DNA of 64,000 nt from Somniosus microcephalus (GCA_052327205.1 JBMRGM010000038.1:35650001-35714000), one strand, 5' to 3'; positions 1 through 58,533 are shown, counted from the stretch's first letter. Program-made: numbers and translations. Notes: generated from the sequence alone by a model not told the origin.

Positions 1-317
1 AGGGGATTGTTAAGATAGCTGTTTTCCCTCGATGTGCCGTGTGTTCCCCATTCCCTGTATAAGTATAGTTATTTCGTATTTGCCTGTAATTTTATACTAG
101 TAACTTCTCATAAGATTGTGTTAATTTCTGTTTCAATAAAAATCTTGGTTTTCTCACATCCAAACCACCTGTGTACTCGAGTCTTTTCTGTATCGCCACC
201 TGTACCTAAGTCCGGTGTCTAGAACCCAGGGGCGTGGGAGCAATTCAAACCGCTCACAAACAGTCAGAGGCATAACTGACTGGGCGTACGCGCCACCCCA
301 CGCCACCACCCCCTACA
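1..317 (+). mobile_element. 3' part of an LTR (3' LTR or solo LTR) from a divergent relative of the ERV family in this window
   Basis: Shares blocks with the LTR at 57006-58530 in the same order (TCGATGTGCCGTGTGTTCCCCATT, AATAAAA, CCTAAGTCC..GTCTAGAACC) and ends CCCCCTACA at 317. Host minisatellite follows, not a PBS. Confidence 0.75.
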
Positions 318-826
318 AGAGTAAAGCTCCCTCTACACAGTCCCATCAAACACTCCCAGGGCAGGTACAGCATGGGTTAGATACAGAGTAGAGCTCCCTT
401 TACAATGTCCCATCAAACACTCCCAGGGCAGGTACAGCATGGGTTAGATACAGAGTAAAGCTACCTTTAAACTGTCGCATCAAACACTTCCTTGGCAGGT
501 ACAGCACGGGTTAGAAAAAGATTAAAGCTCCCTCTACACTCTCTTATCCAACACTCCCAGGGCAGATACAGCATGAGTTAGATACAGGTTACAGCCGGGT
601 TAGATACAGAGTAAAGCTCCCTCTACACTGTCCCATCAAACACTCCCAGGGCAGGTACAGCACGGGGTTAGATACAGAGTAAAGCTCCCTCTACACTGTC
701 CCATCAAACACTCACAGGGCAGGTACAGCACAGGTTAGATACAGAGTAAAGCTACCTCTTCACTGTCCCATCAAACACTCACAGGGCAGGTACAGCGCGT
801 GTTAGATACAGAGTAAAGCTCCCTCT
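318..826. repeat. 67-bp minisatellite (AGAGTAAAGCTCCCTCTACACTGTCCCATCAAACACTCCCAGGGCAGGTACAGCACGGGTTAGATAC)n
   Basis: Unit starts at 318, 385, 452 etc.; head-to-tail with point variants and no unique spacers. Confidence 0.95.
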
Positions 827-1422
827 GCTCTGCGCAAACAAGGTCCCAAATCCCAACCTCAGAGGATCACACCCTATTAACCACCTCCCTCAGATCTCAT
901 GTTCCCACAGCTCTGGCCATTTCTGGATCCTCCCCTTCCTTCACTCCACCATTGGCACCTTGGGATGTTCTTCTGCATTAAAGGTGCGATATGATGACAA
1001 GTTAGTGTTGTTCCAGTGTGACAGTCTCCATTTCCCATCACATCCTTGATCAGTCTGTATGAAACTAGACAATTGTACTTAGAGTGACTTTGCCTCTATT
1101 TTGGGGTTTTAATTGGATAGACTGTTTCTCCCTCGTGATGTCCTTTCTGTTATCAGCAGGGACGGGGGAGCTTGTCCTGTTTTACAGACTACGAGTTAGG
1201 GGCAATGGGTGAAGCTCAGTCCCATACTGATCATCTATAAGAGGTCCTCCCCACAAGAGACAGGACACCACTAACAAGAACAAAGTGTCTGTCCAAACTA
1301 ATGTCCCACAGTACATATCAACTGATTAAGGTCCAACTTTTCGATCCGGTACAATGAGGCAATGATCCCGTCCGCATCCAGCCATTTGTAGAAGCTTCTG
1401 GAAAACCCATTGGACTCCGAGT

Positions 1423-1700
1423 GTGTGCGTGCCAGGCTCCCTGGAGAGGGAGCGGGCAATGCCCACTGGTACACTCGAGACCGCCCGTGACCAGTGGGCA
1501 CCGCAGGGAATGGAGAGTCTTATTGACACGAGTCATAATATTATGGTTTACTTTTATGAGTTTCCTGTTGTTTTGTCGAAAGAACATTCTGTGTTTGAGT
1601 TCCTTTGTCAGTTGTGCCACCATAAAGAGGGAGGCCAGGTGTAAATTCGTTCCTCTGTTGATGACACCGGGACAACCCATGTCATTTTATGGCTCAATTT
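1423..1700 (+). mobile_element. 5'-truncated Tx1/L1-clade LINE 3' fragment (ORF2 C-terminus + 3' UTR); homologues at ~32260 and ~45402
   Basis: Translates as SLERERAMPTGTLETARDQWAPQGMESLIDTSHNIMV, paralogous to ALDMEYAVSTGTLEAFRDRWAPRRMECIITPGNQILI at 27925-28087. Clade assignment is from recall. Confidence 0.55.
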
Positions 1701-1714
1701 TTAAAAATCCACAT

Positions 1715-2120
1715 TAGACATAGGAACATCGGAACAGGAGGAGGCCATTCAGCTCCTCGAGCCTGTCGCTCCATTCAATGAGATCATGGCTGATCTGGGA
1801 CCTAACTCCTTATACCCGCCTTTGGCCCATATCCCTTAATACCTTTGGTTATCAAAAATCTATCAATCTCAGATTTAAAATTAACAATTGACCCAGCAAC
1901 AACTGCCGTTAACGGAAGAGAGTTCCAAACCTCTCCCACCCTTTGTGTGTAGAAGTGTTTCCTAATTTCACTTCTGAAAGATCTGGCTCTAATTTTTAGG
2001 CCATGTCCCCTTGTCCTGAACTCCCAACCAGCGGAAATAGTTTGTCTCTGTGTACCCTATCGGTTCCCCTTAATATCTTGAAAACGTCAATCAAATCACA
2101 CCTTAACATTGTAAATTCCG
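1715..2120 (-). mobile_element. CR1 LINE 3' fragment (homologues ~32550-32960, ~45693-46100)
   Basis: Begins ACATAGGAACA..GGAGGCCATTCAGC, the reverse complement of a CR1 3' tail; similar to the end of the CR1 at 55100-55368. Confidence 0.7.
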
Positions 2121-2747
2121 AGCTTTTCACCATTGGGAAAGTACGCTGATCTATCCTTTTTAGATCCAAAGTGGATGACTACTGTATTAATGGTGCCCAT
2201 CAAAATGTGCCCTTGTGTGACTCTTTCAGGTGGGGGTGATTGACCAAATTTTAATCGGCCATCCTGGCAATAAATCCATCAGTTCTGTCTTTTTTTTCCT
2301 TTTTTTATTATTCTTTTTTTTCTTTTTTTTCAAGTTTTATTTAAAGTTTTATTACTTTACAGTTGATTAGTTTAATCAAAAGAGCACCCCTATTGGTCGA
2401 ATGTTTTCTTAAGTTACAGTCAATTGCTTTAATCAAAAAGAGCAACCAAATTTTAAATTAATTTGTTCCTCTTTTGGTAGCACCAATCAAAAAAATAAAC
2501 AAATAAGCTGTAACTAATAGAACTTTAAATAAATGTTAACAAATCAAATCAGAATTTGGTTACAGATGATTTGTTCCTCTTTTTAAAGAACCAAATAATT
2601 TTGACAAATAAAACTGTAAATAAACCGTTAAAACTTCAACCGAACCCTAAGAAATCAAATTAAAATTTGGTTTTCCAGCCCAATTATGCACTCCAGTCCC
2701 CGCGGCGCCCACCGGTCACGGAAGTGACAGTTGATTTGTTTAACCAC

Positions 2748-2876
2748 CCAATCAAAAGAGAGTCACTCCGATTGGTTGAATTAAAATAGGCCCTCCTGGC
2801 AATAAATACATGAGTTCTGTCATTGGGTAGAAATTGTGGAGCTTGGGGTTAATTGACTCAGGTTGTGTGCATAAAA
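2748..2876 (+). promoter_or_regulatory. ZP3 copy A proximal promoter: CCAAT boxes + variant TATA (CATAAAA)
   Basis: CCAAT 2748, ATTGG 2771 and 2822, CATAAAA 2870-2876, about 50 nt before the ATG. Copies B and C have TATAAAA at the same place. Confidence 0.6.
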
Positions 2877-2920
2877 GGTGCTTGTTGATGGGTGCAGGGA
2901 TAGTTGAGTTGTTTAGTATC

Positions 2921-5784
2921 ATGGGGGATTTTGTAGTGAGGGGTTTGCTCCCAGTGCTGGTGTTAGTTGGAGCTGTTTGTTCCTCTGATATTTGGCAACA
3001 GTTTGGGGGCCAGAGGTTTCCATGGAGAAGAGTAAAAGTCACCCCTGGGCCTCAGAGAGTCCCTTCTCCTGGGTCTCCCTTTGGCTCCGGTTTCAGTGTG
3101 TCTGAGGGGCGCAGTGTGTCTCCACTGCAGACTGTGAGGGTGCAGTGTGGAGAGCACAACCTGCTGGTCAGGGTACAGATGGATTTATTTGGAACCAGGC
3201 ACCTGATTAAAGCTGCTGACCTGACCCTGGGGACGGCAGGTTGTCGGCCAACTGGGATCTACTCTCAGAACCACACCGTCCTCTTTGATTATGGGCTCCA
3301 TGAGTGTGGCAGCAGAGTGAGGGTAATGTGATTCCTCAACTCTTGCTCTAAGCTTGGAGTATGGATTAGACCCAATTCTTCATTCCTACTCTTGGTGAAA
3401 TGTCATTGATGTTGAGATTCCTGTCTCTTGCTTTTAAATCCTCAGACTTGTGTTGAATTATGCATTGTCCTTTTGCTTTAACTGGTTTTCCTTAGTCTCT
3501 CCAACAATGTCATGTCAGCACTATTGGCCTTGATCCTTGACTTGGTTCTTCCAAACTTTTCCTTCCTTACATCCTGTCTTGTGGATTTTCTGGTCACTGG
3601 GAATTCAGTTTAATGGTTCAGTTATCTACAATATTCAGCTTTTTATCTCCCACTCCGTGTAGAATACAGGGGAGCCTCGATTAAATGAGGATTTAATCTT
3701 GTTCTTTTCATTGCTCCAAATTATCAACCTCTGGCTCCTTTATTGAATCTTTATTCTGTTTAATTGTCTTGTGCTTGCAATCCCCCTCCTTGCTTTAGCT
3801 GCTGAGGCTGCACAACTTCCAACCACCTGAGTAGAATGTTGTCCATTTCTGAACCTGATGTCTTTCAGATGTCTGGAGATTTCCTGGTCTATGCCACCCA
3901 CCTGAACCACACCCCCAAGGCCCATGGATCTGTCATTGTGAGAACTAATGGAGCTGTCGTTCCCATTGAGTGCCACTATTTTAGGTAAGATTCTTTACAC
4001 TGTCGTGAATAACGTCTACAGCTGGTGTAGTTCTCTGACCTTGTCCTAAAATGGCTCCATTGTCTTTCCAGGAAGGGCAATGTGAGCAGTGACCCGATCA
4101 AGCCCACCTGGATCCCGTTCAGCTCCACCAAGTCTGGAGAGGGGCTTCTGTCATTCTCTCTGCACCTAATGAACGGTATGTGATGGGTGGATGGGGAATG
4201 ACTTCCTGTAGTCACCCACTGGCAGTTGTACCCAGTCTCCAACCCTTGTCCCTCTTGTACTTCAGATGACTGGCTCACAGAGCGCACCTCGACTGTCTAC
4301 TACCTGGGTGACCTCATTCACATTGAGGCCTCTGTTTCAATGACCAACCACATGCCCCTGAAGCTCTACATTGATCGCTGTGTCGCTACGTTAAGCCCAG
4401 ACACGGACTCCACCCCGAGATACAGCATCATTGACTACAATGGGTAAGGAGCACTCTGCTTTCTCCAGCTAGTCCTGTCTCAATGGCTTCTCTTGATTCA
4501 CTCAATGTCCCTTTTTTAAAAAATTATTTCTTCAGTTGCCTCCTGGACAGCAAAGCTGAGGACTCCTTCTCAACCTTCGTGTTGCCAAGAGACGGGCGTG
4601 AGCTGGACAAGCTCCACTTTGACCTGGATGCGTTCCGCTTCTTTGGAGATGACCGTTCCTTGGTAAGAGGAAGCCGACCATTGCAAAGTATTTACAGCCA
4701 ATCTGCATAACTGGCTTGTGCTCCACACGAGTGTCCTCCCACCCCTCTTCATCTAACTCTCCAACATATCCTTCTATTCCTTTCTCCCTCATGTGTTTAT
4801 CTAGCTTCCCCTTAAATGCATCTACACTATTTGCCTCAACCACTCCCTGTGGTAGTGAGTTCCACATTCTCACCACTCTCTGGGTAAAGAAGTTTCCCCT
4901 GAAATCCCTCTGCTGTATATCCTGTGATCCTATGAATCACTAACATTAACCACTTTTCTCTGTTTCTAGCCAGCTTGCTATCCATTCTGCTACTTGTCCC
5001 CTGAATCCACCTGTTCATTGAGTTCCCAAGTTGGGAGGGAGTCACTATATAATGACTTGTGTTGACTGTGTCCCTCAGATTTTCATCTCCTGTCACCTGA
5101 AGGTTGCTGCAGTGGATCGGAGAGATTCCATGAGCAAAGCTTGTACTTTCCAGAGGATGCAGAATGTGTAAGTGCCCCCTCTCTCCCTCAGGGATGTGTT
5201 GTGTGGGGAAGTGATGCCCAACCTGATTGTGAAACTGATTCTCTTGTTTAGCTGGGCCCCATTGGAAGTATCCAACAATGACATTTGTGCCTGTTGTCAC
5301 TTGGGCAACTGCAGTGCCACAAGGGAGTTTGGATTTGATTCCAGAGGAAGGAGGGATCTTGTACCTGAAGCTGGTAGGACATTGATTCTCTAGATGTTGG
5401 AGGTTGCCCTTTACCCTCTCTCTAACTGGAATGTTTGATATTGCAGCGAGTGATGCTGAATTGAAGTGGGAGGGTGAGGCCTCCCTTGGACCCCTGGTCA
5501 TTCTGGACACTGATGTGACCGACCTGGCAACCGAGTCCCTTAATGAGGTTGAGCAGCGGATGCAGGAGAGGTCTCCAGGTGGTGAGTTGGCCGACTGCTA
5601 GTTTCCATTTCCCCCTCAGTATTTCCTTCACTCACTGTTGGTTTCTCATTGCTGTTTAGGTGTGGAGTCTGAGGTGGTCCTGATGTTGGCCCTGACTGTG
5701 ACTGCTGTCTCTCTGATCTCTGCTTCGTTGATCGCCTTGTTCCTGTACAGGAAACACAAGCAAACCCTGCGCAACAACTTGTGA
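2921..5784 (+). CDS. zp3: Zona pellucida sperm-binding protein 3 (ZP3/ZPC), copy A, 9 exons, 465 aa
   Basis: Exons 2921-3322, 3869-3984, 4072-4175, 4266-4443, 4536-4662, 5079-5167, 5252-5373, 5447-5581, 5660-5784; all GT-AG, sum 1398 nt, open frame. Signal peptide; ZP-N ([35 protein letters not shown]); ZP-C ([43 protein letters not shown]); furin site RGRR; [12 protein letters not shown]; TM helix; AATAAA 5787-5792. Confidence 0.95.
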
Positions 5785-6229
5785 TTAATAAAGTGGTGAA
5801 ATTAGCAAATCTGTAATGGTTATTGCTTACATTTGGTCATTGATCAAGGCTGGGGATTTGCATTCTGAATATGGGAAGTTTTCCATATTTATTTACTTCC
5901 ATTAATGATTCTTGACCCAGTGGCATGCCTGCTGAGTGTATTTAAGCTTTTCACCAGATATCAGGCTACTGGGGTATCTGCCCCATTTCACTAGTTTATT
6001 AACAGCAACTTGGAAGTGTTTGCCTGGAGCGAGTTATCTTGGCCTGCTGTTTGTCCCTTGTTAAGGAGCTTTGTGGGGCTCTTGTGGAGTGAGGTTAGTG
6101 GGACTGATTATTGAGCCCCATGAAATTGCCATGTTCCTGGAAATTTTAATGCTGGGATTAGTTTATTACTAGAAGTGGAGGTTGTTTAGTCCTCTATAAC
6201 TGACTGGGATAATGAGTCTAAATGGGGTA

Positions 6230-6700
6230 GATGTCCATATTATAAAAATGATAGCCGCACTAGTGAGGGTGCAAAACATTTACTAGGATGATGCCAGAAC
6301 TGAGATTATTATTAGGAAAGATTGACCTGTTTGGGTTGCCTTCTTTTGGAAAGAGAAGGCTGAGGGTGTTTAAAATTACGACTGGGTTCGATGGGTTAGA
6401 TATCGAGATGTTTCCACTTGGGGGCAAGACCAGAACTAGGGGCCTGTAACTACAAGGTAGTAACTAACTAATGACTCCAATGGTGAATTCAGGAGAAACT
6501 TCTTTACCCAGAGAGTGGTGAGAATGTGGATCTCGCTAGCGCGGAGTGGTTGAGGCGAATGGTGTAGCTGCATTTAAGGGGGAGCTCGAAGCATGAGGGA
6601 GGAATAGAAGGATATGTTTGGGTGAGATGAAGGGTGGGAGGAGGCTCGTGTGGAGCATAGACTAGTTGGGATGAATAGCCTGTTTGTGTTGTCGATGGCT
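6230..6700 (+). mobile_element. Degenerate CR1 LINE 3' fragment (homologues ~19840-20310, ~36850-37310, ~50000-50460)
   Basis: Translates as ALARVQKTFTRMIPEL..RRLR.. and NFFTQRVV, matching the C-terminus of the intact CR1 ORF2 at 52342-55278. Confidence 0.8.
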
Positions 6701-6768
6701 TGTTAACCTGCAGGTTAACATCACCTGAGGAATTGCATCTCTGAAGGCCCCTTAAATGGCTTTCGGTG

Positions 6769-7004
6769 TTGGCCGTGGCTCAGTGGGCAGCACTCTAGCC
6801 TGAGTCGGAAGGTCGTAGGTTCAAATCCCACTATAGAAACCTTGAGTACAAAAGCCAGGCTGACGCCCCCAGTGCTGCACTGTCGGAGGTGCCATCTTTC
6901 GGATGAGAAGTTAAACCGAGGCCACTTCTGGCCCCTCGGGTGGATGTAAAAGATCCTATGACAGTTTTGGAAGAAGAGCAGGGGAGTTTTTCCCTCTGAC
7001 CAAT
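6769..7004 (+). mobile_element. tRNA-derived SINE (SacSINE1/DeuSINE-like), cut at 7004 by the ERV LTR
   Basis: Pol III A box TGGCTCAGTGG, B box GGTTCAAATCC, then a Deu-domain-like core. The uninterrupted paralogue is at 20385-20750. Confidence 0.8.
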
Positions 7005-7474
7005 TGTAGGGGGTTTCTCTTGCTCGGTCTGGTCTCCTGCCAGGCTTTGTGCAATAATTACCCTTGAGTGGTTCGACCCACTCCCCCTACGGTTCTAGAC
7101 CTTGGACTTAGATGCAGAGAACTGTAGTGCAGAGAAAGGACTCAATAGACCAGGTTGAATAGCACGAAATGGATGCTTTTATTTTGGAACAGTTTGAAGC
7201 ATTACAAAATACATGTCATAGGCACAGATTAAAGTAACTACAATCATGCACAAATTTATGAACTTGACTCTATGGAAATGGGGAGCACACGGCACATCGT
7301 AAAAGGGAAAACACATTACGATTTACCTTAACTCCCTCCCCTATACCTAAACTAAGTTTCGACCTGAGGAACTTGGGATCATGCTCACCACTCAAAATCG
7401 CGAAAAAGGGGGTTCGCAGCCTTTTGGCACCGCTTTCCGTCGTCACATGGATTTGGAAACTTCTGGCGCAGTCG

Positions 7475-7516
<42 letters not shown>

Positions 7517-8578
7517 GCGCTTGAGGCGGCGGGGTAGACACAGCCTCGATGAGCGCTCGTCAAGGTTGAAGATCAGCTACAAGCTGTTGAAGAACTGCAT
7601 GCAAATGGGAGAATTCTGAAGGTCTCTGGCCGGATGGTATGCCGAGGACCTTTCTCGCTCCCGCCTGGCTCGGTGGCTTTCCAGAGGGTTTCTTCTCCTT
7701 CGGCCTGGGTCGTCGATGATCTCCCGACCCCAGTACCCGGGCCACCCTTGTCATCTTCCCGTCGTCACCGAGCCTTGTCTGGCTGAACACCGACCACGTT
7801 GTCTTTTCACCGAAATTGTCCGTCCGAAGCGTCTTTAAAAAGACGAAGCGTCTTCATCGATTCCGAAACTACCGAGGTAGAAGAGGCGCCGATCTTGGAT
7901 CGGTGTAACCGTCACCGTCCGTCCTTCGTTCGTCCGTTCGTTCCGTCGATGACTCCGATCGTTCCCCGATTCACTCCGTAACTTTTGATGGACTTTCAAT
8001 CCATAGTTATACTCTTTTGGGACAGTCTTATCTCCCGCCAAATCATAGTCCTGTCTTTGTATTAATTTTGGCGGGCAGAAATCTCTGCAGGGGCGCTTTG
8101 TCTTGTAACGGGAGCCGGTGATAACTTAACTGGCCTTCCTGGCCGATAATGTCTTTTAATGTTTTTTACATTGTCATCGCGACTCGGTTCGCATATTGAC
8201 CGGTCCGGAGATTTTCCTTGATGGCTGTTAAACGGTTTCTCCTTTGTACAATAAATGGGTATGAGTGTTTTTGCATTGTCCGCCCATATCTTGATGGGCC
8301 CCATCCTGTACTTAGAATCCATTGAATATGTATGCTGTTTCCCTGAGTTTCGGTTCCCAGATACTGGCTTTCGCGGGCTTACTGTCTTCAATCCACAAGC
8401 CTGTCTGGCTTGCAGTAACAGAAATCAAACGGTCCAGAAAACTGATCACGAGGCCCGGCGGCCATTTTGTATGCCCTTTAATCAAAGGTTTTTCTGTGCA
8501 AGCTTACTTTGGTCAATAAACTGTCTTATTTTATCCTGTTTTCTTGCGTGATTATTGCTGAAAATTTCGAATCTTACA
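7005..8578 (-). repeat. 3' LTR of ERV copy 1 (1574 bp)
   Basis: Direct repeat of 17809-19369; termini TGTAAG...CCCCTACA on the minus strand; (CT)n at ~7478-7514; YY1-like AAAATGGCCGCC; AATAAAA near the U5 end. Confidence 0.95.
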
Positions 8579-8966: not shown

Positions 8967-10673
8967 TTAGAGTGGGGTGTCTTCTTCCCCCATTCGCACA
9001 TCGCGTTCTCTCCATTCTCCTGTGTTCTCGTGCCTCTGGAGGCGTTTGCCTCTTTTGCAATGCATGAAAAGCAAAAATATCACAATTAAAACCTGACACA
9101 CTACTAGGATGTGGGACGCTATTCTAATCCAGGCTGGGACCTCTATGTTAGTGAACAAGTCCCACCATGGTGGGATGGTTATGTCTAATATGTCTTTTCC
9201 TATCTCTAAAGTCTTCTGCTCCAGTGTGTAAAAATGTTTCTGTGAAACTATAACAGCTTTTAAAATCTTGGTGAGGTGTTCGGGAAGAGGGGGAATGACA
9301 TAACCAAAATGCGCGACGAATCGTTGCAAGTCTGTGAAATTCTCTTTGACAGTGAGGTGAACGGTGGAGGGTGCAGGAATGGGGACAATTCGTTGTTGTG
9401 CCACTTGAACCTCGGCCCTTGGTTTGAAACAGAAACTGCTATCACTGATCGAACACCACTCGTGTTGTCCGTAGCGGTAGTGAGGCGCTGCAGTGGTGAC
9501 GCAGTATGTCCCACCCCCGATATATGCTACCTGCGGGGGCACATGGTCCTCTGCCATTGCCTCCATGGTGCAATTTATCGGCTTCGCGCTAACGGTTCTG
9601 AACCTGCACTGTGGTTTCAAAAAGGCATTCAAGTGCTGGGGACACAAGATGATGTGTGCTCCCCGGCTCCGACATCTCGAGAGGTCGGTGCCTGTCATCG
9701 TACGCTCCCATCTGATGACGTAAGGCGGGACCACTGCGTAACGAATGTGTTCACCCCCCTGAATGACTCCAATGTTCTCCACCCTGTATACCGGGGCGGG
9801 CTTTGCTGCGGGACCCAACACCGGCATTCTTACCACTATTCCCATGATAGTATGATTCGAACGTCCGCAGTCCACTGGGACTGGGTACACTTCTGCAGCT
9901 AGTCTGAGCTGGCACGGGCTTAATGCATTCTCAAAAGGGTGGAGCGCTTGCAAGTGCTTGTTGCTGATCCAGGACGGGACCAAACCCTGTTTTAAATCCT
10001 CAAGATTACTGTGACCCTCGCCCAGTAACCACGCCCCGTATAGCACACAGGCCTCGTTTTGCGCAGCTTGATCGGACGCATTCCGATCCTCCTTAATGAG
10101 CGCATTTACTGTTCTCGCGTGTCTCTCCAGCTCAGCTATTATTTCCTTAAAGTGTAGTGTCATGGCCTGATCCTCATGTAACTCAGAACCCACTACCTTA
10201 TTTTCATCTGTCAGTATGTTCCTTAACTGGGCTTTTAAACCGTTGATCTGTGTCTGCAGCTCCACGTTATCTAGAGCGTTGACGACAGATGTCCCGGTAT
10301 TAAAAGCAGTGAATATGTCATTTACTGTACCCCTTCTTTGCCTCCCGACTCGATCCAAAACTTCTGGTGGTGTGGTGTATAATTTGTCTTTGTCGATGTC
10401 GGCAAAATCAAACTCGTAAAACTGTCTAAACATTCGGGTTAACAGGACCTGATATAATTGTTCCGTTTCTTTGGGACACCACTCCGGCAATCGTACCTCA
10501 GTGAGGTTTAAAATCACTGAGGCCACCGCGTAGTGTACCCCTTGGTACAGCACCTGACCGGTGGGTACCAATACTAAACCGTTCCCGGGTCCCTTGGTGG
10601 TGGTTGGGCACCCTTCTTTCTGGGCTAGTGCTCCGGAAGCGTGGGCAGGGGCTTGCGTGGGCGGGTGATGAGT
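8967..10673 (-). CDS. env: Env fusogen portion, class I paramyxovirus/pneumovirus-F-like
   Basis: Frame open from 10673 with no ATG/signal peptide at its start. RQRR furin site, fusion-peptide-like GTVNDIFTAFNTGTSVVNAL, heptad repeat, Cys-rich block, second heptad, TM (IASHILVVCQVLIVIFLLFMHC), short tail. Confidence 0.85.
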   Translation of the reverse strand, partial: THHPPTQAPAHASGALAQKEGCPTTTKGPGNGLVLVPTGQVLYQGVHYAVASVILNLTEVRLPEWCPKETEQLYQVLLTRMFRQFYEFDFADIDKDKLYTTPPEVLDRVGRQRRGTVNDIFTAFNTGTSVVNALDNVELQTQINGLKAQLRNILTDENKVVGSELHEDQAMTLHFKEIIAELERHARTVNALIKEDRNASDQAAQNEACVLYGAWLLGEGHSNLEDLKQGLVPSWISNKHLQALHPFENALSPCQLRLAAEVYPVPVDCGRSNHTIMGIVVRMPVLGPAAKPAPVYRVENIGVIQGGEHIRYAVVPPYVIRWERTMTGTDLSRCRSRGAHIILCPQHLNAFLKPQCRFRTVSAKPINCTMEAMAEDHVPPQVAYIGGGTYCVTTAAPHYRYGQHEWCSISDSSFCFKPRAEVQVAQQRIVPIPAPSTVHLTVKENFTDLQRFVAHFGYVIPPLPEHLTKILKAVIVSQKHFYTLEQKTLEIGKDILDITIPPWWDLFTNIEVPAWIRIASHILVVCQVLIVIFLLFMHCKRGKRLQRHENTGEWRERDVRMGEEDTPL

Positions 10674-11323
10674 TCAGTGGCGTTTACCGGAATAGGGGAG
10701 TATGGGGCTCCGCACGCTCGAGTGCTCACATCCCATCTCATCCCCTTTCCTTCATCCTGCCACTGCCTCTGGAAGAAGATGGATACGCCCTTGGGGCAAA
10801 CGTGTCTTGAACCCCACATACAGACATATATTCCTTCATCTGGTTCCCACCATTTGTCCCAACACACACGTAATTGTCCGTGAGTCCCCGTAATAGTCCG
10901 ATGGGTATTATTACCCAGTCGCTCCCACTCGACTGTAGAGTTCCTCATGTCTTTTCCCAGCTTTCGCAGCCACCACCATCGCCTTAGTGGTACGTTCCCA
11001 TTACACACCAGACAGATCCTCTTTCCCACGGTAACGCTGACTCTGGGTGCAAGGATCCTCACCCGAGGGCTCGTTAACGAAGTCTCTTGGTAGGCAAAAC
11101 CGAAATTGCTGGAGTATTCCGTAGAATTCGTTCCCAGCCAACCTGGCCATCTCCCCTGGTGGAAGTAGGTGGCGGTTTCCTCAGCCTCTCGCTCCCCTGT
11201 CCCATCCGTTGCGATGGGGGCCGTGTCCCCGGAACACCCGAAGATGATGACGTCCTTGGTGCGGCCTCGGTAGGCCCACCCGCACCCGATCGCCACGAAC
11301 ATGATGAGAATCTTTTTCATCAT
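10625..11323 (-). CDS. Signal peptide + immunoglobulin-like domain ORF; probable N-terminal part of env, separated by a -1 frameshift
   Basis: ATG 11323 (MMKKILIMFVAIGCGWA), 11 nt after a splice-acceptor-like TTTTATTGGTTACAG. Ig motifs VSVTVGKRICLVC / WWWLRK / GQLRV / DEGIYVC. Overlaps the F-like frame at 10673-10625. Confidence 0.7.
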   Translation of the reverse strand: MMKKILIMFVAIGCGWAYRGRTKDVIIFGCSGDTAPIATDGTGEREAEETATYFHQGRWPGWLGTNSTEYSSNFGFAYQETSLTSPRVRILAPRVSVTVGKRICLVCNGNVPLRRWWWLRKLGKDMRNSTVEWERLGNNTHRTITGTHGQLRVCWDKWWEPDEGIYVCMWGSRHVCPKGVSIFFQRQWQDEGKGMRWDVSTRACGAPYSPIPVNATELITRPRKPLPTLPEH

Positions 11324-11514
11324 ATCCCAGGTTTCTGTAACCAATAAAATGATGTAGCCGGGCTCCCAATAGGTGCTGGCCTAATTAAATGGACGCGCGG
11401 GTTCCTGGACCCCGCTCCTAAACAAGCACACGTACCGGGCAGACTACAAAATCGTACTCTTAACATATCTTAACACCGTATACTTTATATTCCTTAAACT
11501 ATCACCATAATTAC

Positions 11515-14500
11515 CTAACTTAACTTATGTACAGCGCCGCCCTCCGTGGGGCGGCCAACTGAATCCCTGTGAGGGCTGTCGCGCGCCACACCCTGCGGTG
11601 GGGCTGCACTGGCCTTCAGCTTTGATCCCCCGCAGCCTGTCGCTGTTGAACGGGAACCATGCCTTCCTGGGGCTGCTCTAAACTGAGGTTGGGAAAAATG
11701 GGGAGAATCTGGCCAAAACTTTCTGGGCTGGGGCGCTCGAGCCGACCTACGAGGGGCTGCTTTGTGTGGGGCTCCCGGGGCTGATGGACCGGGGGTCGGG
11801 ACTGTCACCGTCACAGCCTGTGGTTCCTCCACAGCTGCCGGCTCCAGCTCCCCTCCCTCAGGCTCCGCCCCCTGGGGTCGGGATTTGTGGCTTCCGACTC
11901 CACCTCACCTGTCCCTACAGGTAGTGAGTCTCCGCCCCCATTCCCTACCTCCCCCAAGCTTGAGTCGAGGGCGGGATCGTCGTCCTCTGACTCTTCCCCC
12001 TCCGTGATTGGGTCTAAGGGGAGGTCGAGCTGTTCGGGCTCTTCCTCGTCCGAATCCCAATCCAGAGGGGAGACCTCCCACTCCGATGGGGTGGCCCCTC
12101 CCTTCAAGCAGGCTACTGTTCCAGCCTGTGTGGTCTGTGACTCTGTTACAGGCTGAGGATCTTTGTTCTCAGACCTGGTCCCTTTTGTTGGCCCTTGTGC
12201 ACCCGGTTTAAACAGTTTACACTGGTTAATGTGAAACCATTTGGTACGTCGGGGCACCTTCACTGCATAAACCATGGGGCTGGCCTTGTCTACAATGCTG
12301 TAAGGTCCCATGTACAATGGTTCAAAACTCCCTACCCTGGCGTAGTTTTGGACCATGACCTGGTCTCCGACTACCCACTCTTGTTGCTTACGAGGTTCCA
12401 GTAACAGTCGGTTTCCCCGATGCTGTCTTCCCATGTTCCCAGCCGCCTGCCCATAAATCTGTTTCAGGCGCTCCAAAAGGGTTTGGACGAATTTGTCTCG
12501 TTTCACCTCTCGGAGCTGGCCCTCAGTGAGCACCGGGGCTAGTACATGGGTGGGTGTTCGCATGATCCTTCCAGTCATTAATTCGTGCGGGGAATACCCC
12601 GTACTTTTGGACTGGCTGGCTCGGATCCCCATGAGGACTAAAGGCAGGACCTCCGCCCATTTCTGGGGCGAGCCCATTGTCTCTTTCCTCAGCTTTTCCT
12701 TGAGGGTCCGATTCATGCGTTCAACAATCCCGGATGACTGGGGATTGTATGCTACGTGCCACTTCCCCTCAATGCCCAAGAGCATGAGGGCGTTCTGCAT
12801 TACTTGACCGGTGAACTGACTCCCTTGGTCGGACTCTACAAAACGGGGGAGTCCCCACCGTGAGAACACTTCCCGAATCAAGATCTTAGCAGTGCCCAGT
12901 GCCGTAGCTGTTCTGCACGGGAAGGCTTCTACCCATTTGGTGAACACATCTACCAGGACAAGGCAGTACTTATATCCTCCCTGGGCGGCGGGCAGGGGCC
13001 CTATGTAGTCGACCTGAATCGACTGCCATGCTCCCTCTACCCTCCTGATGTGCCCCATGGGCATCTTCCTTTTGTGGGGGTCTGGGTTGTTTGCAGCGCA
13101 CACAAGACAGCTTGTGCAGAAATCGCGGACATCGTCCCGAAGTCCCGGCCACCATCCCGCCTGCTCTACCCGCTGCCAGGTAACCTCAGGCCCGGGGTGT
13201 CCCGCCCCTGGACCCTCGTGGGCCAGTTGCAGGAATTCCCTCCGGTGCTGCTGCGGCACAACCCACTGCTCCCCTCGGAACAGCATGCCTTCTTTGACTG
13301 AGAGGGCTGCCGTACTGTACGGACCCTCTACCTGCTTGCCTTCTGTGATGGCTTTTAGGACTGTTTTTAGGGCGGGATCCAGGGTTTGGATGGTCTTTAG
13401 GTCTGGGGGCGGTGTCACCCCTGTGTTCCCTGGAATTCCCTCCCTGCCTTGGATCGCCGCCACGGGTCCGGGTTCATAGGGGTCCCAGAGAATGCCATTG
13501 CGGGCACCCTCCCTGGCTAGCGCATCCGCCTGCTGGTTGCCCTGACTGCGGGGTTCTGTGGTGGAATGAGCCTTCACCTTATGGATGAACACCTCCCCTT
13601 CCTCTCCCACAGCTGCCAGGATCTTTTCTAGCAAGGGCTTAACTGTTAAAGGCCGCCCGTCCGCGGAGGTATATCCGCGTCGGGACCAGATGGCGAGGTA
13701 CTCTGTACACGAATTGCATGTGAACATGCTGTCTGAGCAAATCGTGTATGGGGTTGGGAAAATCTCGGGGTGGGTAACCACGTACGCCACCGCGGACAGT
13801 TCAGCCTGCTGTGCGCTCATAGTGCTGGGGAGCTTAATTGCCAGGGCAATGTTTGCCGCAGGGTCATAAACTCCACACCCTGTGAGTCGTTCGCCAGCAG
13901 ATACTGTGCTAGAACCGTCTACGTAGATTTTGCGGCCTGTGGGGTGTATCCCGGCCCGTAAACCTATGTTGACCTCCCATACCCCTTCTACGGAACACCG
14001 ATGGGCTGTCCCGGGATATGCCATGTTGGCTGCGAGCCTTGGCGCGCAGAGGCCTTTAACTTTGAGATCCATCTGGGAAAGGAGGAGGGTCCAGCGCGCA
14101 ATCTGAGTGCTGCTTACGGTCCCATCCTTAATCCTTCCATCCAGAAGCATCTTTGTGGGGGTGTGATGGGTGAGGAGCGTGATGGGAGAGGTTCCTGTGA
14201 AGATCACTGATCTGTTCACAGCCCAATGCGTGGCCAGGAGATGCCGTTCGCAATTGGAGAAACTCCTCTCTACATCCGTGAGCACCCTGGAGGAATAAAC
14301 TACCGGTCTCAGCTTGCCGTGCCGCTCCTGGAGCAACACGGCGCTCAGGCTGTCCCCACTGGCGGCTACCTCAGAACTCCTCTCCCCCATCTATGGCCCC
14401 TAGGGCTGGCGCGGTCTGCAGATCTCTTTTCAACTTCTCGAATGCTGCCTGGCACCCCTCATCCCAAGACCACTCGACTCCCTTGTGTAAGAGTCGAAGT

Positions 14501-15873
14501 AGCGGGGCTGCTGTGGCAGCATAGTCCTCGATGAAATCTCTGCAGCACCCGGTCAAACCCAAAAAGGACCTTACACCCGTTACTGTGTTGGGAATCGGCA
14601 GATCTTGTATTGATTCCCTTCTGGCCTTATCTATGGCTCTTTCCCCAGCGCGGAGGGCCAGACCCAGGAATTTGACTTCCTGCTGGCCGATCTGGGCTTT
14701 CTTCGGGTTTACTTTGAAACCCTTCCTTTCTAACAGTTCCAACAGTTCGGCTAATAGTGGGCCGTGCTCCTCCCTTGTGTCCGTGAACAGGAGTAGGTCG
14801 TCCACATACTGTACTATCTGGTTGGGCTGGCTAAACTCTTTTAAACTCCCCGCCATGCATTGATGGAAAATGCTGGGGCTGTTGTGAAAACCCTGTGGCA
14901 AGCAGTTCCAAGTGTACTGTTGCCCTTTGAAAGTAAAGGCAAACTTGTACTGATCCTCCCGCCGCAGCGGAATGGACCAGAAACCGTTCGAGATGTCCAG
15001 CACCGTGAACGTGGTCGCCGATGCTGGAATACTCCCTATTAGGTCTGCAACTGCTGCTACCGTGGGCGCGCAGGCTGGGATGTTACTATTGAGGACTCTG
15101 TAGTCCACCGTGGCTCTCCACGAATTGTCCGGCTTCTTTACCGGCCATAATGGGGAGTTCACGTGAGTGGCTATTGTTCTCAATACGCCCTGCTGCACCA
15201 ATGAAGATATTGCGGTCTCCATGTCGGGTTCTGCCTCCTTGGGGAAGTTATACTGCTTTTGGGGTCGGATCATGGGGTCCCCGTCTACGCTGACTTCAAA
15301 CCCAGTGACTCTCCCACAGTCGTGCTTGTGGGTGGCAAACGCGGTCAGATTTTCCGACACACACGCCTGCAAGTTCGTTGGGACGTTCGCTACCATGAGC
15401 TCGAGATCGTAACCTCCTGACAGCTTCATGGTGCACAGGGCCCCCTTTTCTTCCTTCCCTGGGATTACGACTACCTTACCTAAACCGCTCTCGGCTCCCC
15501 AGAGACAGTGATTTCTCAGGTCCACGAGGATCCCGTGTTCCACCAAGAAATCAGCCCCGAGGATGCCTTTTCCACCCCCCTCACTCCACTTCAATAGGAT
15601 ACACGTCCATGTGGTGTGGAGTGCTCCCAGATGAATGGAGAGCGGGATGGAGTACGCGCCAGCCTGTTCTCTGCCTGTGAAACCCACTACTAAGTATGGA
15701 GCCTGGGCGGACAGAGGTGAGGCAAAAGGTTTATCTGTGTGGATCACGGTACACGAAGCTCCCGTATCCAACAGGTAACTACCCTTTTGTCTTTCCACCT
15801 CCATCTCCACCACAGGTCTTCTCCAGGCGTCATAGCGGAGCGGACACAGGTAGACGGGCTGCGCAGGCGTCAG
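11515..15873 (-). pseudogene. pol: pol of ERV copy 1 (PR-RT-tether-RNase H-IN), frameshifted
   Basis: LLDTGA; NSPLWPVKK; LPQGFHNSP; YVDD; YVDGSS..SAQQAEL..SDS; H-H-C-C; QVDYIGP/SDQGSQF/GIVERMN; GPY. A 5-nt deletion (TTCTG) at ~14372 relative to copy 2, and a probable second -1 shift near 11870. Confidence 0.9.
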
Positions 15874-17805
15874 TCATTTAGGTGTTTCGGTTGGGGTCTC
15901 GGGAGCGATAGGGCTGTTGGCGACCGCTACCTTCCCCTGCCAGGTCATCAGAGACCGCATAGTCTCCAAGACTGACTCGATCGTAGCGGGATCCACAACC
16001 GCACCACCCCCTGTTGTTGGGGCAGTGGCTACGGTTGGGTTCTGGACTGGTGCTGGGGCAGCGGTCTGGGCTTGGGCTTGGACTGGTGTTGGGACAACGA
16101 TCTGGCCGTGGGCTAGGACTTGGGCTTGGGCTCGGGCTTGGGCTGCGGCGAACGCTCTCTCTCTCTTATCCTTCCATGGATTTCTACAGTCCTTGCGCCA
16201 ATGACCCTCCTTCCCACACCCGTAACAACTGCTGTTGGCTTGGGGAGGGCGATTTCCCTCCTGATGCCATTCCTTTTTAGCAGAAGCTGCGGGCCTCACC
16301 TCATGCACCTTTCCTTTTACAACAGGCGTTTTCCTACCCTTGTTGTTCCTGTAACTGATCGTGAGCTGATCAAGTACTAGTTCCTCCGTGGAGCGGGCGT
16401 TAGTGGGGTCAAACCATGCTTTGGCCTGCTCCCTCACTATTGGCAAGCAACCTGCTACCAGGCACCGAAGCCAATGAGCCCTTTGTTCATCATTTAGCGC
16501 GTTCCGTTCCGGTCCTCCCGGGCAGCTGCGCCGATACACGGGCCACAACCTTCCGGCGAAAACCCGTGGGGGTTCTCCCTCTAGCTGCACTGTCTTTTCT
16601 AAACAGAGGAACGGAGTTCCGTCACCCTCTCCTATAATCTCCAGGATCTCGTCCCGTAACAACTCATAGTCCCTGTGCCCTCTCTTGCTCTCGTCAGGGA
16701 GACACTGGAGGAGCGAGCTGTCCAGGGAGAACAGCAGCATTTTAGACTGTTCAACCCCGTCGCAGTCATTGACTGCTGCGGTCTGCTCCACGTCCCTGAA
16801 ATGCACGGAGGGATCTCCTGACTCGGAGAGTTTTGGGATGTGACTTATCATTGCCCTCAGCTGTTGTGCGCTGTGGGGCATTATGATCTGATTCACAAGG
16901 GGTCCATCATCGCCATTGTCTTCATTCGGACCGAGCCTCCGGTGTCTAGTTGGACACACCGGCGCCGGTCCCGACTCTACTATCTGGTGTTGCTCTACCT
17001 CAAGAATCTCTTCATCTACCGTCTCCGTCTCCTTCCCCGGAGTCCAAGACTCATCATAAGCAGGAGGCGCAGAGGGTTCGGGGGTTGGTTCCCGAACTAT
17101 CTCTTGTGGAATCGGTCTTTTGGATTCCTTGGCTAGCAATAGCTGGCTCGCTGGTGGATTTATGAGACACACCAACCCGTTTGCCTTGGCTAGGGCCATT
17201 CTCAGGTCCTCTTGCTCCCGACGGCAAGTGCTGTGGTCGGTGCTCTCAGATCTATCCTCCATGGCCATCTTATATGCTGCCCTGGCTCCCAGAAGTTTTT
17301 CCTCTTGGGTCTCTATTTGCTTAGCTAGACGGAAACACCTGTCTCTCATTCTACCTTCACTGGCCTTGGCCTCAATGACCTGACATTTTAAATACTCTAC
17401 CCGGGTTTCGTGGCAGCGAGTTGTGGAGTGGCGTTCCTGATTCAGCGCGTTAAGCGATTCAATCAGTTTCTGACCTCCCGCAACCTTTTCCTCTACGTCT
17501 GTAAGCAACCCTTTGATCTGGGCTGTTTGTGCTGCAACGACTTGGTCCAAAAGCTGGACTTGCTTCTTGTAGCACATCAGCCAGACCGCCTTTTCTACAG
17601 ATTTCTTATGCTCTTTACCCTTTGTCCACTTGATGGCTGCGTCTAGCGGGCGCCTATCCCTTAATAGGTCCGATATCCATTGTTTTGTGAGGTTGACTTT
17701 TCCAAAAACATAATCTGCTATTCTTTCATCCATCACATTTCGTTTATTCAGACCTTGATCTAACACACTACTTTCCTGCTGCCAAGGTCCTGCCGCGGTC
17801 GCCAT
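15874..17805 (-). CDS. gag: Gag (643 aa), intact
   Basis: Coiled-coil N-half, overlapping late domains PSAPPAY, capsid-like region, single zinc knuckle CYGCGKEGHWRKDC. Ends in TGA in frame with pol. Confidence 0.9.
   Translation of the reverse strand: MATAAGPWQQESSVLDQGLNKRNVMDERIADYVFGKVNLTKQWISDLLRDRRPLDAAIKWTKGKEHKKSVEKAVWLMCYKKQVQLLDQVVAAQTAQIKGLLTDVEEKVAGGQKLIESLNALNQERHSTTRCHETRVEYLKCQVIEAKASEGRMRDRCFRLAKQIETQEEKLLGARAAYKMAMEDRSESTDHSTCRREQEDLRMALAKANGLVCLINPPASQLLLAKESKRPIPQEIVREPTPEPSAPPAYDESWTPGKETETVDEEILEVEQHQIVESGPAPVCPTRHRRLGPNEDNGDDGPLVNQIIMPHSAQQLRAMISHIPKLSESGDPSVHFRDVEQTAAVNDCDGVEQSKMLLFSLDSSLLQCLPDESKRGHRDYELLRDEILEIIGEGDGTPFLCLEKTVQLEGEPPRVFAGRLWPVYRRSCPGGPERNALNDEQRAHWLRCLVAGCLPIVREQAKAWFDPTNARSTEELVLDQLTISYRNNKGRKTPVVKGKVHEVRPAASAKKEWHQEGNRPPQANSSCYGCGKEGHWRKDCRNPWKDKRERAFAAAQARAQAQVLAHGQIVVPTPVQAQAQTAAPAPVQNPTVATAPTTGGGAVVDPATIESVLETMRSLMTWQGKVAVANSPIAPETPTETPK
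17787..17804 (-). other. Primer-binding site, tRNA-Arg(UCG)
   Basis: TGGCGACCGCGGCAGGAC, 4 nt from the LTR, is complementary to ...GTCCTGCCGCGGTCG-CCA, the vertebrate tRNA-Arg-TCG 3' end as recalled. Confidence 0.8.
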
Positions 17806-17808
17806 TTC

Positions 17809-19369
17809 TGTAGGGGGTTTCTCTTGCTCGTTCTGGTCTCCTGCCAGGCGTTGTGCAATAATTACCCTTGAGTGGTTTGACCCACTCCCCCTATGGTTCT
17901 AGACCTTGGACTTAGATGCAGAGAACTGTAGTGCAGAGAAAGGACTCAATAGACCAGGTTGAATAGCACGAAATGGATGCTTTTATTTTAAACAGTTTGA
18001 AGCATTACAAAATACATGTCATAGGCACAGATTAAAGTAACTACAATCATGCACAAATTTATGAACTTGACTCTATGGAAATGGGGAACACACGGCACAT
18101 CGAAAAAGGGAAAACACATTACGATTACCCTTAACTCCCTCCCCTATACCTAAACTAAGTTTTGACCTGAGGAACTTGGGATCATGCTCACCACTCTCAA
18201 AATCGCGAAAAAGGGGGTTCGCAGCCTTTTGGCACCGCTTTCCGTCGTCACGTGGATTTGGAAACTTCTGGCGCAGTCGATATTCTCTCTCTCTCTCTCT
18301 CTCGAGGCGGCGGGGTAGACACAGCCTCGATGAGCGCTCGTCAAGGTTGAAGATACCTAAGTCTGTTGTCGATTTTTGTTCATGGAGCAGAACAACAACC
18401 CAATGGGATGTTGAGATACGGAAGTGTCAGGCCCGGAATGTCCTTTCTCTCTGGCCTGGATCGTCGGTTTTCCTGAGGGTGTCTTCTCCTTCGGCCTGGG
18501 TCATCGATGATCTCCCGACCCCAGTACCCGGGCCACCCTCGTCGTCTTCTCGTCGTGGCCGAGCCTTGTCTGGCTGAACACCGACCACGTTGTCTTTTCA
18601 CCGAAATTGTCCGTCCGAAGCGTCTTTAAAAAGACGAAGCGTCTTCATCGATTCCGAAGCTACCGAGGTAGAAGAGGCGCCGATCCTGGATCGGTGTAAC
18701 CGTCACCGTCCGTCCTTCATTCGTCCGCTCGTTCCGTCGATGACTCCAATCGTTCTCCGATTCACTCCGTAACTTTTGATGGACTTTCAATCCATAGTTA
18801 TACTCTTTTGGGACAGTCTTATCTCCCGCCAAATCATAGTCCTGTCTTTGTATTAATTTTGGCGGGCAGAAATCTCCGCAGGGGCGCTTTGTCTTGTAAC
18901 GGGAGCCGGTGATAACTTAACTGGCCTTCCTGGCCGATAATGTCTTTTAATGTCTTTTACATTGTCATCGCGACTCGGTTCGCATATTGATCGGTCCGGA
19001 GATTTTCCTTGATGGCTGTTAAACGGTTTCTCCTTTGTACAATAAATGGGTATGAGTGTTTTTGCATTGTCCGCCCATATCTTGATGGGCCCCATCCTGT
19101 ACTTAGAATCCATTGAATATGTATGCTGTTTCCCTGAGTTTCGGTTTCCCGATACTGGCTTTCGCGGGCTTACTGTCTTCAATCCACAAGCCTGTCTGGC
19201 TTGCAGTAACAGAAATCAAACGGTCCAGAAAACTGATCACGAGGCCCGGCGGCCATTTTGTATGCCCTTTTATCAAAGGTTTTTCTGTGCAAGCTTACTT
19301 TGGTCAATAAACTGTCTTATTTTATCCTGTTTTCTTGCGTGATTATTGCTGAAAATTTCGAATCTTACA
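17809..19369 (-). repeat. 5' LTR of ERV copy 1 (1561 bp)
   Basis: Highly similar to 7005-8578 except a non-homologous ~115-nt block (~18355-18470) and (CT)n length. Confidence 0.95.
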
Positions 19370-20620
19370 CAAGCAAACCCTGCGCAACAACTTGTGATTA
19401 ATAAAGTGGTGAAATTAGCAAATCTGTAATGGTTATTGCTTGCATTTGGTCATTGATCAAGGCTGGGGATTTGCATTCTGAATACAGGAAGTTTTCCATA
19501 TTTATTTACTTCCATTAATGATTCTTGACCCAGTGGCATGCCTACTGAGTGTATTTAATCTTTTCACCAGATATCAGGCTACTGGGGTATGTGCCCCATT
19601 TCACTAGTTTATTAACAGCAACTTGGAAGTGTTTGCCTGGAGCGAGTTATCTTGGCCTGCTGTTTGTCCCTTGTTAAGGAGGTTTGTGGGGCTCTTGTGG
19701 AGTGAGGTTAGTGGGACTGATTATTGAGCCCCATGAAATTGCAACGTTCTGGAAATTTTAATGCTGGGATTAGTTTATTACTAGAAGTGGAGGTTCTTTA
19801 GTCCTCTATAACTGACTGGGATAATAAGTCTACATGGGGTAGATATCCATATTCTAAAAATGATAGCGGCACTAGCGAGGGTGCAAAAAACATTTACTAG
19901 GATGATTCCAGAACTGAGATTATTCTTATTAGGAAAGATTGACCTGTTTGGGATGCCTTCTTTAGGAAAGAGAAGGCTGAGGGTGTTTAAAATTATGACT
20001 GGGTTCGATGGGTTAGATATCGAGATGTTTCCACTTGGGGGCAAGACCAGAACTAGGGGCCTGTAACTACAAGGTAGTAACTAACTAATGACTCCAATGG
20101 TGAATTCAGGAGAAACTTCTTTACCCAGAGAGTGGTGAGAATGTGGATCTCGCTATCACGGAGTGGTTGAGGCGAATGGTGTAGCTGCATTTAAGGGGGA
20201 GCTCTAAGCATGAGGGAGGAAGGATATGCTGTTTGGGTGAGATGAAGGGTGGGAGGAGGCTCGTGTGGAGCATGGACTAGTTGGACTGAATAGCCTGTTT
20301 CTGTGCTGTCGATGGCTTGTTAACCTGCAGGATTAGTCACCTGAGGAACTGCATCTCTGAAGGCCCCTTCAATGGCTTTCGGTGTTGGCCGTGGCTCAGT
20401 GGACAGCGCTCTAGCCTGAGTCGGAAGGTCGTAGGTTCAAATCCCACTATAGAAACCTTGAGTACAAAAGCCAGGCTGACACTCCCAGTGCTGCACTGTC
20501 GGAGGTGCCATCTTTCGGATGAGAAGTTAAACCGAGGCCACTTCTGGCCCCTCGGGTGGATGTAAAAGATCCTGTGGCACTTTTGGAAGAAGAGCAGGGG
20601 AGTTCTTCCCTCTGACCAAT
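19370..20620 (+). repeat. Orphan 3' end of another ZP3 unit (last codons, polyA signal, downstream flank); paralogous to 5757-7004
   Basis: Starts CAAGCAAACCCTGCGCAACAACTTGTGATTAATAAA and aligns with 5757-7004 with scattered substitutions and indels. Confidence 0.9.
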
Positions 20621-33382: not shown

Positions 33383-33520
33383 CCAATCAAAAGGGTCACT
33401 CCGATTGGTTGAATTAAAATAGGCCCTCCTGGCAATAAATCCATGAGTTCTGTGATTGGGTAGAAATTGTGGAGCTTGGGGTTAATCGGCTCAATGTGAC
33501 TGCAGGTTGTGTGTATAAAA
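33383..33520 (+). promoter_or_regulatory. ZP3 copy B promoter (CCAAT boxes, TATAAAA 33514-33520)
   Basis: CCAAT 33383, ATTGG 33404 and 33455, TATA about 50 nt before the ATG. Confidence 0.65.
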
Positions 33521-33564
33521 GGTGCTTGTTGATGGGTGCAGGGATAGTTGAGTTGTTTAGTATC

Positions 33565-46525: not shown

Positions 46526-46663
46526 CCAATCAAAAGGGTCACTCCGATTGGTTGAATTAAAATAGGCCCTCCTGGCAATAAATCCATGAGTTCTGTGATT
46601 GGGTAGAAATTGTGGAGATTGGGGTTAATTGTCTCAATGTGACTGCAGGTTGTGTGTATAAAA
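46526..46663 (+). promoter_or_regulatory. ZP3 copy C promoter (CCAAT boxes, TATAAAA 46657-46663)
   Basis: Same arrangement as copy B. Confidence 0.65.
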
Positions 46664-46707
46664 GGTGCTTGTTGGTGGGTGCAGGGATAGTTGAGTTGTT
46701 TAGTATC

Positions 46708-58530: not shown

Positions 58531-58533
58531 GAA

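Follow-up and report, generated by a model that had tools for sequence, protein, structure and literature searches.

Do an immunoglobulin (Ig)-like motif and a paramyxovirus fusion (F) protein-like sequence, lying in two overlapping reading frames of one endogenous retrovirus (ERV), belong to one gene or to two? The question is raised by a provirus on the minus strand of a 64,000-nucleotide stretch of the Somniosus microcephalus genome (GCA_052327205.1 JBMRGM010000038.1:35650001-35714000; "the window" denotes this whole stretch). Frame 10625-11380 (minus strand) encodes MMKKILIMFVAIG..., VSVTVGKRICLVC, RRWWW and DEGIYVC, the Ig motif reading V-S-V-T-V-G-K-R-I-C-L-V-C followed by a run of tryptophans and D-E-G-I-Y-V-C, and frame 8967-10673, which overlaps it at 10625-10673, encodes RQRR, long helices, a Cys-rich core and a transmembrane (TM) segment. 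An earlier note had read the two as a single Env of about 785 amino acids (aa) broken by the loss of one base, with a separate secreted Ig protein as the alternative. We favour, with some reserve, the view that the locus is the frameshifted env of a high-copy ERV resembling snakehead retrovirus (SnRV), and that the intact form consists of a signal peptide, a likely Ig head, a Pro/Thr linker and an F-like fusogen, the head serving for attachment.

A DNA search of the organism's own genome (6.45 Gb) gave 4,125 candidates, of which 40 were scored, all being 98-100% identical, and 20 were retrieved. Of these 20 copies, 18 join the Ig motif to the beginning of the F core in one stop-free frame, and in nine the frame is open from the head through the TM segment. 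The exceptions at the junction are the window copy and L001, each with two overlapping frames. As L001 duplicates the window provirus including its flanks (99.4-99.7% identical), the break at the junction represents one event. Comparison of the window copy with one natural unbroken copy (97.9% identity) shows one single-base gap across 2,496 columns, placed by the reads near 10632 in the Pro/Thr linker. In a second copy within the window (copy 2; 57004-64000, plus strand; also L051), whose env the earlier note had proposed to inspect, the junction is in frame and the break lies further 5', inside the head. Subfamilies with 57-79% identity have this head too, in frames reaching about 790-800 codons, in the skate relative P0002 a single protein contains both head and core, and the in-frame junction is present in 37/44 and 26/35 RNA reads of a related organism. 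Scans of genome contigs at relaxed likeness revealed a high copy number, with both junction forms present. The two env frames are one env gene in most copies, as the earlier note had preferred to think. A pair of genes, one for a secreted Ig protein and one for the fusogen, or else programmed frameshifting, would account for the overlapping frames of the window copy and L001, yet with L001 being a duplicate, and with the in-frame junction in most copies, in copy 2, in other subfamilies and in most RNA reads, a separate secreted Ig gene is rejected, and we regard the chance of such an arrangement as practically negligible. The window copy itself could make at most a truncated, secretable head.

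All parts of this env gene lie on the minus strand. A likely splice acceptor, composed of a T-rich tract and CAG ending at 11335 (11335-11352), precedes the start codon at 11323; both had been noticed earlier, the acceptor-like motif is kept in 20/20 close copies, and a T-rich tract with CAG stands ahead of the env start in all six divergent subfamily copies examined. We infer that the env mRNA is spliced. Against this stands that spliced reads into the acceptor, which the earlier note had suggested to look for, were not seen in the RNA reads of the related organism; these reads cover both strands of the element without joints and say little about splicing or about expression of single copies. 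Residues 1-19 (11267-11323) form a likely signal peptide, a hydrophobic N-terminus judged by hydropathy only (Kyte-Doolittle 19-mer, 1.22). The N-terminal arm of the head (aa 20-85; 11069-11266) has two conserved Cys positions and is partly used in the modelled Ig sandwich, and the likely Ig-fold core (aa 86-190; 10754-11068) comprises B-strand Cys107, C-strand Trp117-119 and D-E-G-I-Y-V-Cys168. Three N-glycan sequons lie in the head (66, 128, 138) and one (214) in the Pro/Thr-rich linker (10611-10753), which holds the frameshift of the window copy. The F core opens with an F2-equivalent part, CPTTTKGPGNGLVL... (10344-10610), matches to F folds starting at aa 244-246. It continues with the furin-type site RQRR (aa 328-331; 10332-10343), aligned with the basic site in the Env of the viral record L084, and with an F1-equivalent ectodomain (9123-10331), in which the predicted model places a putative fusion peptide, heptad repeat A (HRA) helices, a Cys-rich beta core and heptad repeat B (HRB). 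TM anchor and cytoplasmic tail complete the protein (8967-9122; stop at 8969-8967). The F-like parts noted earlier in the -1 frame are there, with a putative fusion peptide that is only mildly hydrophobic (0.64, versus 2.76 for the TM segment).

Is the C-terminal part an F-like fusogen? Pfam Fusion_gly matched env weakly (E 0.039), single-sequence searches of the PDB with both env parts gave nothing meaningful, and a profile of the Env family matched zero F proteins among PDB sequences; the F-likeness of the core rests on the fold search. An AlphaFold2 (AF2) model of a natural full-length copy, made from a 56-row alignment, has predicted local distance difference test (pLDDT) values of mostly 75-93 at aa ~240-650, apart from 308-352 and 374-392, where confidence is low. 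Among the Foldseek matches listed there were only paramyxovirus and pneumovirus F proteins (human parainfluenza virus 3 F, E 1.9e-11), and VIA-align gave Z 11.0 for parainfluenza virus 5 F and Z 8.1 for a foamy virus Env (8rm0). The root-mean-square deviation (rmsd) is large in these alignments (5-29 Å) because helices are placed differently, and identity to paramyxovirus and pneumovirus F amounts to only 6-15% for a predicted F fold spanning aa ~244-655. When the P0001 model was compared with BFVD, the matches included a fish filovirus glycoprotein (E 8.8e-13) alongside F proteins, as well as the predicted Envs of the walleye epsilonretroviruses WEHV1 (E 1.5e-11) and WDSV (E 1.1e-5). The predicted model shows the class Ib features of an F domain I-III fold, HRA/HRB, a cleavage site and a TM segment. 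The gamma-type hallmark CX6CC is absent from the Cys list of the Env, and with the F fold matches this rules out a gamma-type surface/transmembrane (SU/TM) assignment for the C-terminal part. In agreement with the earlier note, this part is strongly predicted to be a class Ib fusogen like the F proteins of paramyxoviruses and pneumoviruses.

For the head, an Ig register is in place, with Cys107, Trp117-119 and Cys168, the Cys pair 61 aa apart and D-x-G-x-Y-x-C. Pfam Ig_3 was matched by 16 of 56 family members (13-17 bits versus a cut-off of 30; best E 0.004) and the next Pfam family by three. With a profile of the head, built without P0008, whose zinc fingers had distorted a first version, the best PDB match was the Ig domain of CRTAM (E 0.029), with B-Cys, C-Trp and F-Cys in register; an unrelated ArfGAP came next (E 0.051). 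In a wide fold search all 34 non-fusogen rows (rows 17-50) fell on aa ~31-174 at Z 5.0-5.5 and rmsd 2.4-3.4 Å over 73-85 residues, 28 of them being named Ig-superfamily or antibody chains and six inferred antibody chains. A series of results weighs against an Ig fold. The window head itself reaches 13 bits with Ig_3 (E 0.15); the Z values lie below the VIA caution level of 8 and near the usual background at rank 50; the head in the AF2 model is mostly below pLDDT 70; a single-sequence AF2 model of it (pLDDT 33) had no Ig match; hhalign against 25 host V domains gave 19.5, a value that one or more of 60 column shuffles attained (maximum 19.9); and Atlas placed Ig clusters at 0.81-0.83, but within the range of shuffled proteins. 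Of the clear Ig signature claimed earlier, the motif in its register therefore stands, every cut-off being missed, and the structural check proposed for it returned Ig chains at modest Z from a model of low pLDDT. Although support is weak at every single test, we consider it quite probable, taking the lines together, that the head adopts an Ig fold.

It could instead be a beta domain with a different fold, rich in Cys and Trp, the Ig motif being partly a coincidence and the modelled sandwich partly due to a bias of AF2 toward the most common beta-sandwich. Sequence scores under the cut-off throughout, an hhalign value inside the shuffle range and a best Z of 5.5 would suit such a domain, as would its eight Cys and many Trp, which are atypical of Ig, and the strands that the model takes from aa 31-60, ahead of the motif-defined domain. 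However, Pfam, the PDB profile search, the fold search and Atlas all lean toward Ig with the B-Cys/C-Trp/F-Cys register correct, and unrelated heads carried by relatives on the same F core exceed their own shuffles as Ig, namely P0013 (Chiloscyllium, 'Ig-like domain-containing' in UniRef; 25.9 versus 15.5), P0039 (18.1 versus 14.0) and P0018 (frog; 17.0 versus 14.2). Another fold is unlikely in our judgement, and we keep to a likely Ig fold.

The nearest Envs come from Rhinoraja, Pristiophorus and Rhincodon, and the skate relative has the same head as the window Env. Among other relatives, the head of P0047 (frog) is Ig-like by motif only, and P0012 (Mustelus) and P0022 carry a Cys-rich non-Ig head on the same F core. 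Homology between the window head and the heads of P0012, P0022, P0013, P0018, P0039 and P0047 was not detectable. A PDB search with P0039 gave zero matches, and one with P0013 gave antibody heavy chains at E 0.054 or worse. The best reading of these comparisons is that the N-terminal head can be swapped across the family, the pol kinship of head-bearing relatives having been examined for L084 only. Two Pristiophorus gene models touch on the same Env: in P0008 a zinc-finger model extends into the signal and head of env, and in P0003 a Niban-like model opens with part of the F core. Annotation artefacts, or splicing that enters or leaves ERV copies, are the likely causes.

Does the head do anything? 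Its Cys are invariant (8/8) in 9/9 subfamily copies. The ratio of non-synonymous to synonymous differences (pN/pS) is 0.29 for the Ig core, 0.29-0.34 for the head and 0.18-0.37 for the F parts (uncorrected values from non-independent pairs, with pS near saturation), and the linker is the least conserved env segment (47% identity, pN/pS 0.62). By this measure head and core are shown to be under purifying selection, and a head with eight invariant Cys and a pN/pS like that of the core is functional in some way. No close host Ig homologue of the head was found among 48 matches (1.84 billion proteins searched), so that any capture from a host would be old. Longer proteins with the head profile were not found in 4,271 candidates, which spanned 654-2,000 aa only and thus constitute weak evidence.

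In the mechanism that we propose, a spliced env mRNA would yield one Env, which furin would cleave at RQRR, head and F2 staying linked to F1. The N-terminal head would be positioned on the trimer like S1 of the coronavirus spike and could bind a cell-surface receptor or glycan, replacing the separate attachment protein (HN/H/G) of paramyxoviruses, and refolding of HRA/HRB would then drive membrane fusion. [quoted passage not shown] Several observations weigh against such a function. P0044 has the same F core without a head and is sister to P0039 (bootstrap 100), and all lokiretrovirus (Loki) Envs examined are head-less, so that a head is not required for this type of fusogen; moreover, head and core are equally conserved, and the head lacks the variability which an exposed receptor-binding domain may have.

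The head of a single Env might also be an immune decoy or shield, mimicking a host Ig-superfamily ligand or masking the F core. The head-less relatives (P0044; 17/17 Loki Env N-termini) would then have an F core that attaches unaided, the sequons of head and linker could contribute glycans, and the best of the weak matches, CRTAM and CD8, are immune receptors. Mimicry would be expected to leave similarity to the host, whereas the 48 matches mentioned above contain no close host Ig homologue; retroviruses lack a second glycoprotein, and N-terminal modules on Env or class Ib scaffolds were receptor-binding where tested, as far as the cited sections report. A decoy is in our view rather unlikely, and attachment is the role we prefer for the head.

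To which retroviral group does the element belong? The earlier note had set it beside lokiretroviruses, a framing that the reverse transcriptase (RT) does not bear out. In motif B the window has LPQG, like 15/15 canonical retrovirus rows in the alignment of Wang & Han 2020 (PMC7947760), as compared by eye, versus PFG in 24/24 Loki rows, and its LDISNGFWSI is identical to the SnRV row there. An RT-profile scan of viral contigs yielded a single record, L084, the RT of which can be read as that SnRV row and is 42% identical to the window RT. In an RT tree of 32 rows both fall into a 15-row clade (support 98/96), apart from gamma-like and bird rows. The Env family profile aligns with the L084 Env over 354 columns (hhalign 95.9%, E 6e-9), plain BLASTP between window and L084 Envs giving nothing significant, and both elements share a tRNA-Arg primer and an in-frame gag-stop-pol, features read from L084 and not from a printed definition. 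Based on RT motifs, RT tree, Env homology and primer site, the element likely belongs to the SnRV-like ERVs, known as clade Huo (PMC6001957) and present in elephant shark as CmiERV lineage I, according to the sections consulted of PMC4422223. Two points weigh against this placement: the tree was built without Loki or foamy RT and without an ERV-L reference by name, so that it demonstrates a relationship to SnRV but does not exclude Loki, and the automatic names of several RT relatives are NYNRIN-like, a label also compatible with Loki. For a lokiretrovirus that acquired an Ig head, besides these names, one may cite the dual RNase H, the F-type Env with its basic cleavage site and the core opening motif GP.xG.VL common to Loki Envs. 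A dual RNase H, however, is common to all retroviruses, the RT groups with L084 and differs in motif B from every Loki row compared, and lokiretroviruses were recorded in 0/6 cartilaginous-fish genomes in the sections used of PMC7947760. Such an origin is improbable, and we continue to regard the element as probably SnRV-like.

Besides the shared traits given above, SnRV and its relatives have an Env core homologous to that of the window. The L084 Env (L084:6131-9535) is homologous to the F core and has an N-terminus with an Ig-like B-Cys/C-Trp/F-Cys pattern, weakly supported as Ig (Pfam V-set E 0.21; Atlas 0.86-0.93 at low recognition) and without detectable homology to the window head (hhalign 6%). 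SnRV differs in the size of its Env (~1,130 aa including an N-terminal part of ~500 aa, versus ~220 aa of head plus linker in the window) and in its primer, Arg(ACG) instead of Arg(TCG). Lokiretrovirus Envs, in the material of PMC7947760 considered here, share the F type, signal, basic cleavage site, coiled coils, TM segment and core opening motif, but their F core starts no more than about 10 aa past the signal in 17/17 N-termini (18 of the 23 listed Envs, one being a fragment). Foamy virus Env likewise joins a class Ib F scaffold to a receptor-binding module of its own, but its RBD has a novel fold and is internal, ahead of the furin site, according to the same sections of PMC11468914 (Fernandez et al. 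2024), in contrast to the N-terminal, likely Ig module of the window. RBD-C of murine leukemia virus (MLV), feline leukemia virus (FeLV) and Env-Pb1 resembles the window head as an N-terminal IgV-like domain with a Pro-rich linker that is exchanged among Env lineages, sequence similarity being no part of this likeness, and is borne on a gamma-type SU/TM instead of an F scaffold, as described in the portions consulted of 10.1101/2024.03.17.585361. Paramyxovirus and pneumovirus F share the predicted fold, cleavage site and HRA/HRB, but have no N-terminal head and depend on a separate attachment protein. An Ig-headed F-type Env was not found in the literature searched, in line with the earlier note, which knew of no such architecture; Calcraft 2024 and Hart 1996 lay outside the search and could contain one. 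Similarly, no description of the SnRV Env as F-like or Ig-bearing was found, the original SnRV paper being outside the search.

The provirus is bounded by a 5' long terminal repeat (LTR; TG...CA, ~1.56 kb) at 17809-19369 and a 3' LTR with a short purine run ahead of it at 7005-8578, both on the minus strand like all its genes; they differ at 53 positions by BLAST or at 87 of 1,547 columns by MAFFT, i.e. by 3.5-5.6%. The primer-binding site for tRNA-Arg(TCG) (17787-17804) lies only four bases past the LTR and overlaps the likely start codon of gag (17805), which leaves almost zero leader, and packaging signals may be located in gag or in the long LTR. The genome contains 341 exact matches to the 3' end of the corresponding tRNA, and ARAGORN called tRNA-Arg(TCG) at three of four loci checked. 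Gag (15874-17805) has one CCHC knuckle and ends with a TGA in frame with pol, presumably passed by readthrough. Pol (11811-15873) comprises protease, SnRV-like RT, tether, RNase H and integrase, Pfam listing RT_RNaseH and then RNase_H, and is frameshifted near 14371-14390 in the window copy. The gag-pol-env order between LTRs, with tether and RNase H, is a layout common to all retroviruses and not diagnostic. Copy 2 has an open gag, a single pol frame of 1,386 codons and LTRs that are 98.6% identical. The element is a high-copy endogenous retrovirus.

A direct duplication of about 1.25 kb of the host tandem unit flanks the provirus (5757-7004 and 19370-20620), and no clean short target-site duplication was found at the flanks. 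LTR divergence of the provirus exceeds that among env copies (1-2%). The provirus is likely a recombinant of two insertions within the tandem array, and LTR dating was dropped for this reason. Provirus and flanks are repeated about 441 kb away (G000:C38:36093600-36114600; L001, L052, L053) at 99.4-100% identity, either through a segmental duplication or through duplication in the assembly. The surrounding host DNA is a tandem unit of about 13 kb with 67-bp and 49-bp minisatellites (window 251-6900, 30500-37600 and 43700-50800), and Rfam and tRNA scans of the window gave zero matches. Light-chain-like V genes fused to J in the germline were observed at L054-L060, L069, L074 and L078; germline-joined V-J genes are a trait of cartilaginous fish and, together with the sources of the nearest Envs, suggest that the host is probably a shark or ray.

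The locus itself is one disrupted member of an abundant repeat family. F-type retroviral Envs described so far are those of lokiretroviruses, without a head, and of foamy viruses, with an internal RBD; new here are the SnRV-like clade and an N-terminal Ig-like head on an F-type Env, a layout foreseen as possible for class Ib scaffolds and not found in the literature searched. The host range of the SnRV-like clade is said to be the broadest of all retroviruses, and the head, as a small soluble domain, could be used to seek receptors of fish retroviruses. Since Loki, foamy and SnRV-like viruses are all deep-branching, the finding touches the question of whether the earliest Env of retroviruses resembled F. 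Tentatively, SnRV-like retroviruses, including the culturable SnRV, may constitute a third lineage with an F-type fusogen and with an exchangeable N-terminal head, repeatedly an Ig fold of separate origin, that would attach in a coronavirus-like manner; together with the walleye epsilonretrovirus matches, this might mean that the F-type Env is ancestral.

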